Source of the DNA: a virus
Lineage: Duplodnaviria > Heunggongvirae > Uroviricota > Caudoviricetes
DNA length: 38,405 bases
Virus record (IMG/VR): IMGVR_UViG_2639762960_000007
Reading direction: 5' to 3' (one strand)
In this document: piece after piece, positions 25,699-29,465 of the stretch
Position numbering within the stretch: the stretch's first letter is position 1
Layout of the letters: each line of letters starts with the position of its first letter
Made by a program: the position numbers and the translations under genes
The notes under the pieces: generated by a model
What the model saw: the letters and a program-made list of their open reading frames with translations, nothing else
Databases searched by the model: none
What the model was told of the DNA's origin: nothing

Positions 25699-26469
25699 AT
25701 GAAAATGCAGACATTACCCATCGTTCCATGGATTGGTGGCAAACGCCGCCTTGCAAAACACATCCTGCCGCTGTTTCCGGCGCATGAATGTTATGTGGAG
25801 CCGTTTTGTGGGGCAGCAGCGCTCTATTTTCTTAAGGTACCCGGCAAGATCGAAGTCATTAATGATATCAACGGTGAGCTGGTGAACCTGTATCGGGTGG
25901 TAAAACATCATCTGGAAGAATTTGTACGCCAGTTCAAATGGGCGCTGGTCAGCCGGCAGATCTACAAATGGCTGCAGATCACCCCGGAAGAAACACTGAC
26001 GGATATCCAGCGTGCAGCACGGTTCTACTACCTTCAGAAGCAGGCGTTTGGGGGCAAGGTGGCGGAGCACAGCTTTGGTACCTCCACCATATCCCCGCCA
26101 CGCTTCAACCTGCTGCGTATTGAAGAAGAACTGTCAGCGGCACACCTGCGGCTTTCCAGAACGGTCATAGAACACATGGACTGGCAACAGTGCATAGAAC
26201 GATATGATCGCCCGCATACGTTGTTCTACTGTGACCCTCCATACTGGGGAACGGAAGGTTATGGTGTGGAGTTCGGACTAGAAAATTATGATCATATGGC
26301 AGATTTAGCACGCAGGATCAAAGGGAAGATGATTATATCGGTGAACGATATCCCGGAAATGCGGCAGGCATTCAACGGTCTAAATATTCAGTCGGTTGAT
26401 ATCAGCTACAACCTCAAGATCACTGGCAAATCCAGTCGCAAGAAGGAACTCATTATCCTCAACTTTTGA
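25699..26469 (+). CDS. N6-adenine DNA methyltransferase, Dam (D12 class)-like, orphan
   Basis: 256 aa; ATG at 25699; motif I-like EPFCGAAAL and catalytic DPPY (FYCDPPYW); no adjacent restriction endonuclease candidate. Confidence 0.85.
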   Translation: MKMQTLPIVPWIGGKRRLAKHILPLFPAHECYVEPFCGAAALYFLKVPGKIEVINDINGELVNLYRVVKHHLEEFVRQFKWALVSRQIYKWLQITPEETLTDIQRAARFYYLQKQAFGGKVAEHSFGTSTISPPRFNLLRIEEELSAAHLRLSRTVIEHMDWQQCIERYDRPHTLFYCDPPYWGTEGYGVEFGLENYDHMADLARRIKGKMIISVNDIPEMRQAFNGLNIQSVDISYNLKITGKSSRKKELIILNF

Positions 26470-27664
26470 CCGAATAGTAAGACTTCATGCAGTGAATCAA
26501 GTACTGCATGAAGTCAAGGGCTGGTTTTGTGTACCAAAAATAAACAGTGATAGCGGTAATAATTCCCATAACTAGAACACCACGTATAATCCAGAACGTA
26601 CGTTTCTGCGTGTCTAGTCGCGCAGAAATACTGCTAAATACACCAGCCACGTCATCTTTAATGAAGGAATATTCCTTATTAATCTGTTTTTCTTTGTATT
26701 CAATTTCTTCGCCTAAGGCCTTTATAGATTGCATCTGGTTCGAAAGTGCCAGCCAGATTAACGTTGCAGCAAAAATGCATCCCAGAAGAATTATTGTGTT
26801 TGTTATCCCTTGGCCTGACCATTTCGTAGCCACTTTGAATTGGGTAGCTACGATAACAGAGGCAACAGGAATGCCAAGTATATGGTTCTGGATATCTGAA
26901 AACGCTTTGTGGATTTTACCCATTTCTTCGACTTTTGCAGCACGCAGTTGATCCATTACTTTGTCATAAGAGAATCCAGAAGAGTAGATACGATACCCTT
27001 TCAGAAACTTTTCATGCAGACGCTGAATATTGTCCAGTAAATAAGCGAATACTAGAGGTGAATCAATTCCATCACTAACTGCTTGAATACTTTCAATCAG
27101 AATATCTAGCTTCTGATCCTTATGGGTATCATCATTGAAACAAGCTATAAGGTTATCAAGATACTCCCTTTGCAAATTTTGTACATTTTCTGCAGCGAAG
27201 TGCGGTAATAGCTTGATAACTTCTTTTTTCAGAAAAACTAACTGACAAGTTGAGTTATCAAAGTAGGCCGCGGCCTCTTTTAGCAGGTTAACGAACTCGA
27301 GAATCTTCCGGTAGTTGCTGATGAAAACGGGGATATCTTCATCATCATTACGAAATTTTGTTTCTAGGATGAAGTAATTAGCTGGCTCAAGGCACTGATG
27401 CTTTGGAGCATTTAGCAATTTTTCATGGGTGGAAAACACAAGTCCCAGTCCACTCCGTGGTGACGTCACACGTAGGATGATCGTGTTACCTGGAGCGATA
27501 GTGCCTGTATCAATAGAAAGACCATATTCACGAGGATCATCAAGCAAAGTATCAACCAGATCACAATCGGACTGATCTAAGAGCAACAGCGAACCGACAC
27601 GAAACCCCTCTTGGAATTCCATACGACGATACAGAGCTGTCAGCATCTCAAATGAAATCGCCAC
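26459..27664 (-). CDS. Protein with ~270-aa soluble N-terminal domain and three C-terminal TM helices; second gene of the repressor-linked cassette (candidate effector)
   Basis: 401-aa ORF starting at GTG 27662..27664, two nt after the upstream gene's TAA, with GAGG upstream; alternative ATG at 27646. Hydrophobic segments IPVASVIVATQF, ITNTIILLGCIFAATLIWLALS and TFWIIRGVLVMGIITAITVYFWY. AT-rich codon usage. Confidence 0.65.
   Translation of the reverse strand: MAISFEMLTALYRRMEFQEGFRVGSLLLLDQSDCDLVDTLLDDPREYGLSIDTGTIAPGNTIILRVTSPRSGLGLVFSTHEKLLNAPKHQCLEPANYFILETKFRNDDEDIPVFISNYRKILEFVNLLKEAAAYFDNSTCQLVFLKKEVIKLLPHFAAENVQNLQREYLDNLIACFNDDTHKDQKLDILIESIQAVSDGIDSPLVFAYLLDNIQRLHEKFLKGYRIYSSGFSYDKVMDQLRAAKVEEMGKIHKAFSDIQNHILGIPVASVIVATQFKVATKWSGQGITNTIILLGCIFAATLIWLALSNQMQSIKALGEEIEYKEKQINKEYSFIKDDVAGVFSSISARLDTQKRTFWIIRGVLVMGIITAITVYFWYTKPALDFMQYLIHCMKSYYSVKS
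26481..26515. other. Perfect 13-bp-stem inverted repeat at the convergent junction of the methyltransferase and cassette genes
   Basis: gacttcatgcagt-gaatcaagt-actgcatgaagtc, 12 nt after the methyltransferase stop and inside the last ~20 codons of the minus-strand membrane-protein ORF. Confidence 0.4.
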
Positions 27665-27666
27665 GA

Positions 27667-28674
27667 TTAAACCTCAGTCATCCACATTTCCCTAAATTCT
27701 TCAGGTACATTACGTAGGGTGATAATATTTGTTTCCGGATCATAATCAATATAGCCTTCAGTTTTCCCTTCCCGGTCAAACTTAAGTTCCCAATATTTAG
27801 ACTTGCCTTTAAAAGATACCAGAGCCCGAATGACTCGACCATCAGGAACGAAGCCATCCGATAACTCCAACTCTTCAGCAGCAAGTTTACCAGATAACTC
27901 CTCGGGAGCCTGGGGCCAAATGGCATTAACAAGGGTTTCAAGACTAAGTGGTTCACCAGCCTTACTTAGTGCATGTAAGTGTTCAAACGCACTCTTAAGA
28001 AATGCATCTTTTTCAGCGCCGTCAAGTCCTTTCTCTGCCGCAAATGCTTTTAAAACGTCACGTAACTTTTCAGACTCTCGTTTGGCGATTAAGACATCAT
28101 TACAGCCTAGGAACTGTTTAAAATAGTTTGAAACATTACCTTGCCCCTTAAGAAAACTGATATAGCGCTCTGCGCCACTTTCCCACGCGGTTAAGTCAAT
28201 GCGCCCAGCCATACGCAGCTTAGCAATATCAAGATAGGTACTATCTTGGATGTTAAAATCATCTGTGACAGTGGACCCAATGGTAGCGCTTACAATAGCT
28301 ATCAACAGGTGTTCATTGTGTCCTATCACGATATTTGCAAAAAGAACATAACCACCAGTAGCCATGTTTTCTCGCTGAGAACGTTCCGTCAGGTGATGCA
28401 TCATTCGGCAGGAACTTTGGTAGAAATCATCAACACCTTCGAGAAAGTCCCCAGCCATTCGTTCCATAGGATAGTTATCCGTATCGCCTTCAAAATAGCC
28501 ATAACCTTTACCTGTGCGTCCTGCATATTTTGCACAAATATCGTTTATAAGGCGCTGAGAGGCTTCAGTAACTAGACCTTCTTCAGGACTCAATCTCTCA
28601 GAAGCGTCTCCATTTTGTTGTTTGTCTAAAATGTGAACTACAACGTGTTTAACTTCAATGGTCTGCTCAGACAT
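27667..28674 (-). CDS. NdpA/YejK (NA37)-like nucleoid-associated-protein homologue; first gene of the repressor-linked cassette (candidate sensor)
   Basis: 335 aa; ATG at 28672..28674 preceded by GGTGGA. It matches the length and several blocks of E. coli YejK as I recall it (GGYVLF, LLIAIVS, YLDIAKLRMAGRIDLTAWESG, RYISFLKGQG, IITLRNVPEEFRE). The family call is from memory, not a search. Confidence 0.55.
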   Translation of the reverse strand: MSEQTIEVKHVVVHILDKQQNGDASERLSPEEGLVTEASQRLINDICAKYAGRTGKGYGYFEGDTDNYPMERMAGDFLEGVDDFYQSSCRMMHHLTERSQRENMATGGYVLFANIVIGHNEHLLIAIVSATIGSTVTDDFNIQDSTYLDIAKLRMAGRIDLTAWESGAERYISFLKGQGNVSNYFKQFLGCNDVLIAKRESEKLRDVLKAFAAEKGLDGAEKDAFLKSAFEHLHALSKAGEPLSLETLVNAIWPQAPEELSGKLAAEELELSDGFVPDGRVIRALVSFKGKSKYWELKFDREGKTEGYIDYDPETNIITLRNVPEEFREMWMTEV

Positions 28675-28744: not shown

Positions 28745-29152
28745 TTAACCCACATTTTTTAACCGCTCAATCGTTGCGGATAATTCCTTCAGTTGTTTTT
28801 CCATCTCAATCACACGCTGTTTTTCTTCAGCGCCTCGCATGAGATCTCGCCGAACCTCAGGATCTAACTGGTTTAGAAGTTCAAGCATTTTAAGGTCTGA
28901 CGGGCTGAATTGATGTTGTGTTGGTACAGCAACAATTTCTTTAGATGGAATATGTTCTTTACCGGTAAGTAGCCAATCGATTGATACACCCAAATGGGTA
29001 CTTAGCGCAACAAGAGCCTCTGCGTTTGGTTCTCTCTCTCCACGCAAATAGTTTTGAAGTGAGCGATATGGAATTTTTGATAAGTCAGATAATGCCTTTA
29101 TTGTCATGCCATTAGCATCCATCACTTCACGCAATCTCTCTTTTGTACTCAT
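28745..29152 (-). CDS. Phage repressor, HTH (XRE/Cro-C1 type) with C-terminal coiled coil
   Basis: ATG at 29150..29152 gives 135 aa starting MSTKERLREVMDANGMTIKALSDLSKIPYRSLQNYLRG; divergent from the early operon across an operator-like region. Confidence 0.7.
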   Translation of the reverse strand: MSTKERLREVMDANGMTIKALSDLSKIPYRSLQNYLRGEREPNAEALVALSTHLGVSIDWLLTGKEHIPSKEIVAVPTQHQFSPSDLKMLELLNQLDPEVRRDLMRGAEEKQRVIEMEKQLKELSATIERLKNVG

Positions 29153-29168
29153 TTGAACATATCTCAAT

Positions 29169-29196
29169 TTGACACACTCATTTGGGTGTGTACAAT
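29169..29196 (+). promoter_or_regulatory. Candidate early promoter (-35 TTGACA, 16-bp spacer, -10 TACAAT) overlapped by an operator-like dyad
   Basis: TTGACA at 29169..29174 and TACAAT at 29191..29196, 45 bp upstream of the Ner-like ATG; dyad ACACAC-N8-GTGTGT (29172..29191) spans the spacer. Confidence 0.5.
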
Positions 29197-29240
29197 AGAC
29201 CCAATAGAGTACATCATAACCTAACAGGAACACGGTGCAT

Positions 29241-29465
29241 ATGAACAAACAACAAGTTCGGGCACGGCTGGTTGAACGAGGCAGTAGCTTGCGCCAGTTC
29301 GCGCTTAACGCGGGCTATGAACCACGAACAGTCACCCAGGCAGTCAGTCGCTGGGCTGGTAAAAGTGAACTACCTCGCGGTCGTTTGACTTATCGGATTT
29401 TGCGAGATCTATCGGTTGCAATAGGTAAAGAAGTTACCCCCGGTATCCTTAAGGAGGCGTCATGA
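29241..29465 (+). CDS. ner: Ner-like DNA-binding protein
   Basis: ATG at 29241 (track start is GTG two codons upstream); 74 aa with LRQFALNAGYEPRTVTQAVSRW resembling the Mu Ner HTH region; first gene of the early operon. Confidence 0.65.
   Translation: MNKQQVRARLVERGSSLRQFALNAGYEPRTVTQAVSRWAGKSELPRGRLTYRILRDLSVAIGKEVTPGILKEAS

Follow-up and report, generated by a model that had tools for sequence, protein, structure and literature searches.

The 88-bp interval between positions 29153 and 29240 of the window (the whole 38,405-nucleotide stretch of DNA analyzed here) corresponds exactly to the gap between two divergent genes, extending from the start codon of a putative prophage repressor gene (ATG at 29152-29150, minus strand) to that of a gene predicted to encode a 74-aa HTH protein (ATG at 29241, plus strand). 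A Cro/C1-type HTH was predicted at the N terminus of the repressor and a helical region at its C terminus, and the protein matched several PHROG transcriptional repressor families; the same 408-nt repressor coding sequence is annotated in RefSeq in a relative. A Pfam search of the 135-aa repressor returned HTH families only and no S24 peptidase domain, so RecA-type autocleavage of this protein is unlikely. The preliminary description, based on the letters alone, had named the interval a divergent immunity control region, and this assignment was borne out by the HTH_3/Cro-C1-type repressor gene on the minus strand, the small HTH gene on the plus strand, and the 88-bp gap between them. Coordinates of all features are collected in Table 1.

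Table 1. Coordinates of features in and around the control region, with spacer sequences of relatives (positions refer to the window)
Feature	Position	Strand	Sequence	Basis or remarks
Prophage repressor gene, 135 aa	28745..29152	-		Pfam HTH_3, E = 3.4e-12; Phage_CI_repr, E = 1.5e-6
Immunity-specific module	28906..29206 (approximate limits)	.		Repressor DNA-binding domain and gap to just past the -10 hexamer
O_L, tentative third operator	29146..29159	.	TACTCATTTGAACA	Left half-site good, right half-site poor
Pe -35 hexamer	29169..29174	+	TTGACA (6/6)	Direct reading; scans; TTG kept in all 12 immunity types
Dyad as first described	29172..29191	.	ACACAC-N8-GTGTGT	ACACAC at 29172-29177, GTGTGT at 29186-29191
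O_M, main predicted operator	29175..29188	.	CACTCATTTGGGTG	Core ACTC-ATTT-GGGT, 29176-29187
Pe spacer, window	29175-29190	+	cACTCATTTGGGTg	Recognition helix IPYRSLQNYLRGER
Spacer, L001 and 8 further loci with identical promoter sequence			tACCCGTTTGGGTg	
Spacer, L032			ACCCGTTCGGGT	
Spacer, L097			TACTCGTTTGAGTA	
Spacer, L073			GCCCATTTGAGT	
Pe -10 hexamer	29191..29196	+	TACAAT (5/6)	A2 and T6 present; direct reading; promoter scan
O_R, second predicted operator	29198..29211	.	GACCCAATAGAGTA	Core ACCC-AATA-GAGT, 29199-29210; inverted repeat I14
Candidate Pc -10 hexamer	29213..29218	-	TATGAT	Weak -35 TATGCA, 29241-29236; 17-bp spacer; total 8/12
First early gene, 74-aa small HTH protein, Ner/Cro position	29241..29465	+		PHROG 8503, E = 5e-35

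Genomic context and neighboring genes

The 74-aa gene is followed by genes annotated as an IclR-like HTH protein, a DUF3102 protein, and an rve transposase, and then, in relatives, by an ExeA-like ATPase gene. The transposase shared 69% identity with the BcepMu enzyme across 98% of its length and 57% with those of B3 and Fc02, and the structural half of the window was 98% identical to Escherichia phage PhiKM. On the basis of these matches, the window was identified as an E. coli prophage of the BcepMu-like transposable kind. Eighteen complete E. coli genomes contained the same 1.2 kb at ≥99% identity, and part of it was found in 626 of 5,426 complete E. coli genomes (approximately 11%). Relatives in this family also occur in many other Enterobacterales.

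Two accessory genes (26459-28674, minus strand) lie between a Dam methylase gene (25699-26469) and the repressor gene. One is predicted to encode a 401-aa membrane protein (phrog_5023), the C-terminal part of which gave a weak PADLOC match to KwaA of Kiwa defence (E = 8e-5), and the other a 335-aa NA37/NdpA-type nucleoid-associated protein (Pfam E = 1e-80). AREA_C483 also has both genes, other genes take their place in KP12_2 and AR_0067, and LH50-c and AR_0058 lack them. Judged from these comparisons, the slot beside the repressor is one of variable cargo, and in the window it possibly holds a defence pair made up of a membrane sensor and a DNA-binding protein. Near the end of the repressor gene, within its 3' part, a promoter-like sequence (TTGAGA-18-AATTAT, 9/12; 28780-28809, minus strand) is oriented toward the NA37 gene and might permit repressor-independent expression of the accessory genes. 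At the other end of the window (positions 1 to 2450), a Hin-like recombinase gene adjoins tail-fibre gene segments, according to the annotations of matching phage records; by analogy with the G segment of Mu, this is probably an invertible host-range segment.

The early promoter

The hexamers TTGACA and TACAAT, separated by 16 bp (29169-29196), had been read as a near-consensus promoter directed toward the Ner-like gene. These coordinates proved exact, and the two hexamers match the consensus at 11 of 12 positions. This predicted promoter, here designated Pe, ranked first in a promoter scan of the region from 27.5 to 31 kb (runner-up, 9/12) and was the sole match of at least 11/12 in the whole window when both strands were scanned. 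A match of at least 11/12 was also present in 28% of dinucleotide shuffles of the window (mean, 0.33), and the hexamer match alone is weak evidence window-wide; placement and comparative data carry the argument. Pe gains its weight from its position in the 88-bp divergent gap, in the correct orientation and with 44 nt between the end of its -10 hexamer and the start codon of the first early gene. Near-consensus hexamers, a spacer within the 16- to 18-bp range, orientation toward a gene, and a position kept among relatives are all features of a sigma-70 (housekeeping) promoter. Transcription is predicted to start at A29203 or A29204, given the usual 7-nt distance from the -10 hexamer. No terminator was called within the control region by the prediction scan.

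For comparison, 95 related loci were collected by means of the conserved IclR-like early protein, along with 6 from E. coli genomes or phage records. Clustering of the repressors on their N-terminal 90 residues gave 12 clusters, which correspond to approximately 11 real types, as cluster 8 partly duplicates cluster 5 (mis-called start). In 91 loci, the first early gene was preceded by a sigma-70-like promoter at a constant distance: 44 nt separate the end of the -10 hexamer from the start codon where that gene is the 74-aa one, and 47 nt where it is an alternative 62-aa gene. The TTG of the -35 hexamer carried 2.0, 2.0, and 1.6 bits of information across clusters, and A2 and T6 of the -10 hexamer were invariant in the 12 aligned cluster representatives (2.0 bits each). 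A few loci have TGCAAT or TGCACT as the -10 hexamer, with A2 lost. Among the loci with a -10 hexamer lacking A2 are L082 and L023 (from Pantoea stewartii and an IMG/VR copy; approximately 2208-2235) and also L084, in which the operator and -35 hexamer are intact. The early promoter in these three is probably crippled, which suggests that they are domesticated or decaying prophages.

Covariation of the promoter spacer with repressor type

Spacer identity was 0.84 within repressor clusters and 0.30, about random, between them. Palindromes were detected in the spacers of 9 of the 16 representative promoters tested (P ≤ 0.022), covering 9 of the 12 clusters; examples of these type-specific palindromes are GCTCATAATTATGAGC, AGAACAATAGTTCT, TATACACGTTTGTGTATA, TATTCATTTTGAATA, TACGCAATTTGCGTA, GTCCCATTTTTGGGAC, and GTCTAATTTTTTAGAC. 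No ungapped spacer palindrome was found in cluster 3, cluster 11 (L099), or cluster 12 (L075). A spacer that varies with repressor type is the expected signature of an operator placed to block RNA polymerase, and the comparison thereby supports the earlier suggestion that a spacer dyad would allow the repressor to occlude the early promoter.

A pairwise comparison with E. coli AR_0067 (L003) gave approximate limits for the segment that varies. The C-terminal half of the AR_0067 repressor is nearly identical to that of the window and its N-terminal DNA-binding domain is different; at the DNA level, similarity is lost across positions 28906 to 29206, and near-identity returns from GAGTACAT (29207). 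The Ner-like protein of AR_0067 differs from that of the window by one residue. These observations indicate an immunity module made up of the DNA-binding domain and the promoter core, which move as one, and show the Ner-like gene to be outside this module.

Ner of phage Mu occupies a site between the early promoter and the repressor promoter, and the first early gene here encodes a small HTH protein. This precedent would fit a reading in which the dyad is the site of an early Ner/Cro-like protein that lowers Pe activity in lytic growth, rather than a site of the prophage repressor. That reading is improbable in view of how spacers and early proteins are combined among the relatives. Nearly identical 74-aa proteins occur with unrelated spacers (the window type, ACTCATTTGGGT, and the AR_0067/L051 type, TATTCATTTTGAATA), and clusters 3 to 8 and 10 have one common 62-aa early protein and seven different dyads. 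Furthermore, the leader that follows the -10 hexamer (GAGTACATCATAACC...) tracks early-protein class and is a better candidate site for such a protein. Because the spacer tracks the repressor across shared early proteins, the spacer dyad is more readily attributed to the repressor than to the early protein.

Each of three genomes carried two members of the family (L019/L038, L046/L048, and L089/L092), and their types always differed. This observation fits heteroimmunity but was set aside as evidence for it, since differing types are expected in approximately 65% of cases from the type frequencies.

The dyad and the predicted operators

The dyad ACACAC-N8-GTGTGT was placed correctly in the preliminary description, and its center is retained here; its (CA)3/(GT)3 arms are not conserved in relatives of the same immunity. 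The pattern had a single match in the window even with one mismatch tolerated. With the same tolerance, shuffles of the window contained a mean of 0.08 matches, and 8 of 100 shuffles had a match; the palindrome score of the promoter span was reached by 1% of its shuffles. Relatives of the same immunity read ACATACCCGTTTGGGTGCGT at this position, and the closest of them differ from the window by the disruption of two outer pairs and the presence of one further inner pair. From this pattern, the functional symmetry is most likely ACYC-N4-GRGT (29176-29187), which has the same center as the dyad, and not ACACAC/GTGTGT. The corresponding main predicted operator, O_M, fills the Pe spacer, with its center near -21.5.

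The sequence (A/G)CYC-N4-GRGT is kept in five spacer variants (the window, L001, L032, L097, and L073; Table 1) whose repressors have the same recognition helix, IPYRSLQNYLRGER. In the 14-mer form, each half-site reads NACYCR. Identity over the gap is 97% in the closest relatives, so that conservation among them largely reflects recent common descent, and independent support for conservation comes only from L073 and L097.

The poor conservation of the outer arms, together with the 8 matching shuffles in 100, is what would be expected if a (CA)n/(GT)n dyad had arisen by chance in a strong promoter and had no regulatory role, with repression exerted elsewhere. Such an origin has a low probability, however, as the inner core is kept through the five sequence variants, most heteroimmune relatives have a palindrome of their own at the same place, and the boundaries of the module swap enclose the dyad.

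Recognition of the dyad by a host regulator (LexA, a MerR-type activator, IHF, or Fis) in place of the phage repressor was also considered, given that some host input into induction would be expected for a repressor without an S24 autocleavage domain. MerR-type activation typically involves an overlong spacer of 19 to 20 bp, and the 16-bp spacer of Pe is not of this kind. The CTGT-N8-ACAG arms of a LexA site are absent from the sequence, and both a LexA box and a MerR-type spacer were rejected on account of this misfit. A site for a host factor, moreover, would not change with the type of the phage repressor, and a role for any of these proteins at the dyad is considered highly unlikely.

A second predicted operator, O_R, is located 23 bp downstream of O_M, with its center near +1.5, over the predicted start site. 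It fits ACYC-N4-GRGT and is retained as ACCCAATTGAGT in the divergent loci L073 and L097. The own-type match of O_R was 10/12, compared with a cross-type maximum of 8, and cluster 2 has an evident counterpart of this second site (TATTCATATTGAGTA). Together, O_M and O_R have the appearance of an immunity switch in the usual sense, that is, repeated dyads, specific for repressor type, over a putative lytic promoter.

A third site, O_L, overlaps the repressor start codon (CAT, 29150-29152) and includes one copy of the direct repeat ACTCATTTG, found at 29147 and 29176 (D13). The 29 bp between O_L and O_M are the same as in cluster 2 relatives, whose upstream copy is clear; in cluster 2, three clear operator copies occur at 29-bp and 23-bp spacings. 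Over all types, own-type matching of the upstream copy differed significantly from cross-type matching (Mann-Whitney test, P = 8e-5), which marks this copy as type-specific. In the window alone, O_L scored 9/12 and the cross-type maximum was 10, so that it was not above background, and it is retained here only as a tentative operator.

There were 7 occurrences of ACYCNNNNGRGT in the window, compared with 1.8 expected, an enrichment that is partly circular because ACYC-N4-GRGT was derived from the same sites. One sequence, ACCCAAATGGGT (28988-28999; inverted repeat I1), matches ACYC-N4-GRGT perfectly and has an A/T center. It is located inside the repressor coding sequence, 176 nt from O_M, where it encodes Thr-His-Leu-Gly, and relatives retain only part of it. 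It may represent a fourth operator, acting at a distance through DNA looping, or a match produced incidentally by the codons at that place.

The repressor promoter

No leftward repressor promoter scoring at least 9/12 was found between 29153 and 31000 in the promoter scan, minus-strand candidates scoring 7 to 8/12 only. The better of two weak candidates is TATGCA-17-TATGAT, designated candidate Pc (Table 1); the other is TTGTAC-17-TCAAAT, a mirror of Pe. The candidate Pc -10 hexamer is kept as TATGAT, TATCAT, or TATTAT across repressor types in relatives of the 74-aa class, and in L070 it reads TATTGT. With low confidence, transcription from this candidate would start near 29206, face to face with Pe.

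If the repressor promoter does lie at 29213-29218, the dyad would be transcribed, and in the window or in the version of the relatives it could form 7 of 8 pairs with G-U pairing allowed. The dyad might then act as an RNA hairpin in the leftward repressor leader, controlling translation or stability, or as a terminator. The putative leader folded no better than its shuffles (z = -0.39), though, and its minimum-energy structure skips the dyad; no T-run follows the dyad. The folding score and the lack of a terminator call led to the rejection of this reading. Partly non-palindromic copies at fixed 29-bp and 23-bp spacings are also what protein sites would look like, and an RNA element is considered very improbable.

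The first early gene and its leader

The 74-aa protein had been called Ner-like. In agreement with this label, it matched the Pfam family HTH_35 (Ner/Nlp family) with an E value of 0.007 and was 33% identical to Mu Ner over 42 aa (BLASTP, E = 5e-4 against that single sequence). The Pfam match, at 16.7 bits, was below the 25-bit cut-off, however, and a phmmer search found no match to a Ner among PDB sequences. The protein also matched phrog_925/769 weakly. The label is used below as a weakly supported one.

The leader with GAGTACAT (29207) is invariant within the 74-aa early-protein class and may be the most plausible target of the Ner-like protein. Within it, just past the -10 hexamer, GAGTACA(T/C) (29207-29214) is invariant across heteroimmune phages with the 74-aa gene, as judged from the homologous position in L003, L051, L070, L073, and L097, and the right half-sites of three repressor types (GAGT, TGAGTA) all use this sequence. 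It may represent a recombination junction of the immunity module, a part of the repressor promoter, or a target of the Ner-like protein.

Proposed organization of the switch

The features described above provide good support, at the level of sequence, for the 88-bp gap being the lysis/lysogeny switch of a Mu-type (BcepMu-like) E. coli prophage. The best explanation of the control region, and one that we regard as quite likely, is a BcepMu-like switch in which the repressor would block Pe by occupying O_M and O_R. Pe, a strong sigma-70 promoter with a predicted start near 29203, would drive an early operon comprising the Ner-like gene, the IclR-like HTH gene, the DUF3102 gene, the transposase gene, and the ExeA-like gene. 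In lysogenic cells, one dimer of the HTH repressor would bind the core of O_M in the spacer, and a second dimer would bind that of O_R, over the start site. Both dimers would sterically exclude RNA polymerase, and transposition and lytic genes would remain silent. The weaker site O_L may provide a third contact, possibly cooperative or autoregulatory. Upon loss of the repressor, Pe would transcribe the Ner-like gene and the transposition operon, a behavior that can be compared with that of pE of Fc02 as seen by RNA-seq (PMC9936078).

A broader and more speculative reading joins three proposals. The family would amount to a natural collection of 11 or more orthogonal repressor/operator cassettes on a fixed promoter scaffold; the hexamers and the 29-bp and 23-bp spacings stay constant, and recombination within the repressor gene and O_R would exchange HTH domains and operator cores. 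The 88-bp gap would be an unusually compact three-operator switch, and the S24-less repressor would be inactivated by a route undescribed for this group. Taken jointly, these proposals are possible, and we hold them to be doubtful.

The predicted layout provides a concrete, testable map of the switch for a family of Mu-type prophages, with one promoter and two to three predicted operators, and it points to diversification of immunity within the family by joint exchange of repressor DNA-binding domain and promoter spacer. A practical use could lie in the set of type-specific palindromes on one shared promoter, as a source of orthogonal repressor/promoter pairs and as an aid in predicting superinfection immunity between prophages. 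The modular repressor/operator pairs on one promoter scaffold are the sole aspect with some wider appeal; the gap is otherwise an ordinary kind of phage control region, and the general concept of phage regulation is unchanged.

Comparison with known phage switches

The control region is an uncharacterised member of a well-known kind of phage switch. As in the lambda-type CI/Cro systems (lambda OR, 434, P22, and 186), a repressor gene and a gene for a small early regulator are divergent, the repressor has a Cro/C1-type HTH, several dyad operators (predicted ones in the window) lie in a short gap over the lytic promoter, and immunity is swapped as a module of DNA-binding domain and operators. 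The sites of lambda OR are 23 to 24 bp apart from center to center and are bound cooperatively, and the 23 bp between O_M and O_R resemble this spacing. In contrast to the lambda-type systems, the repressor here is 135 aa long, with a short helical C-terminal region and without an S24 peptidase domain; the main predicted operator fills the space between the -35 and -10 hexamers and covers neither of them; and the downstream operon encodes transposition functions.

Mu c/Ner (Muvirus) likewise belongs to a transposable phage with a leftward repressor gene and a rightward early operon, in which a gene for a small DNA-binding protein comes first and is followed by those for the transposase and its ATPase partner. 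The Mu gap contains O1 to O3 and an IHF site, and the Mu repressor has a MuA-like winged-helix domain. The c-ner gap of Mu is 235 bp long, compared with 88 bp here; the HTH_3 repressor has another fold than that of Mu, and the first early protein is only marginally similar to Ner. The window thus lacks the features of a Mu-type control region in the strict sense (a gap of about 235 bp, O1 to O3, and a Mu-type repressor).

A closer parallel to the position of O_M is found at Pant of P22, where a strong promoter has the Arc operator between its -35 and -10 hexamers, which puts repressor and RNA polymerase in direct competition. Arc itself, encoded in an accessory immunity region, belongs to the ribbon-helix-helix proteins and is not homologous to the proteins encoded here.

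Among BcepMu and the B3-like phages (B3, Fc02, and JBD67), repressor and operator sequences differ from those of the window. A literature search found no experimentally defined operator in these relatives and nothing specific on the switch of PhiKM, Phi06_2974, or BcepMu-like E. coli prophages. The gene order is nevertheless shared: in BcepMu, the early genes (BcepMu08-17) have the same order as in the window, and BcepMu and B3-like phages have in common a cI-like repressor gene followed by divergent genes for a small HTH protein, a transcriptional regulator, a gp10/DUF3102 protein, a transposase, and an ExeA-like protein. In the B3-like phage Fc02, pC2 and pE overlap in a 106-bp gap, the distal promoter pC1 also feeds the repressor gene, and RNA-seq indicated that pE, upstream of ner, fires after thermal inactivation of the repressor (PMC9936078). 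No counterpart of pC1 was found for the repressor gene of the window. In BcepMu itself, a promoter with TTGACA contains the dyad GGTAATC/GCATACC between its hexamers, the same arrangement as that of Pe and O_M.
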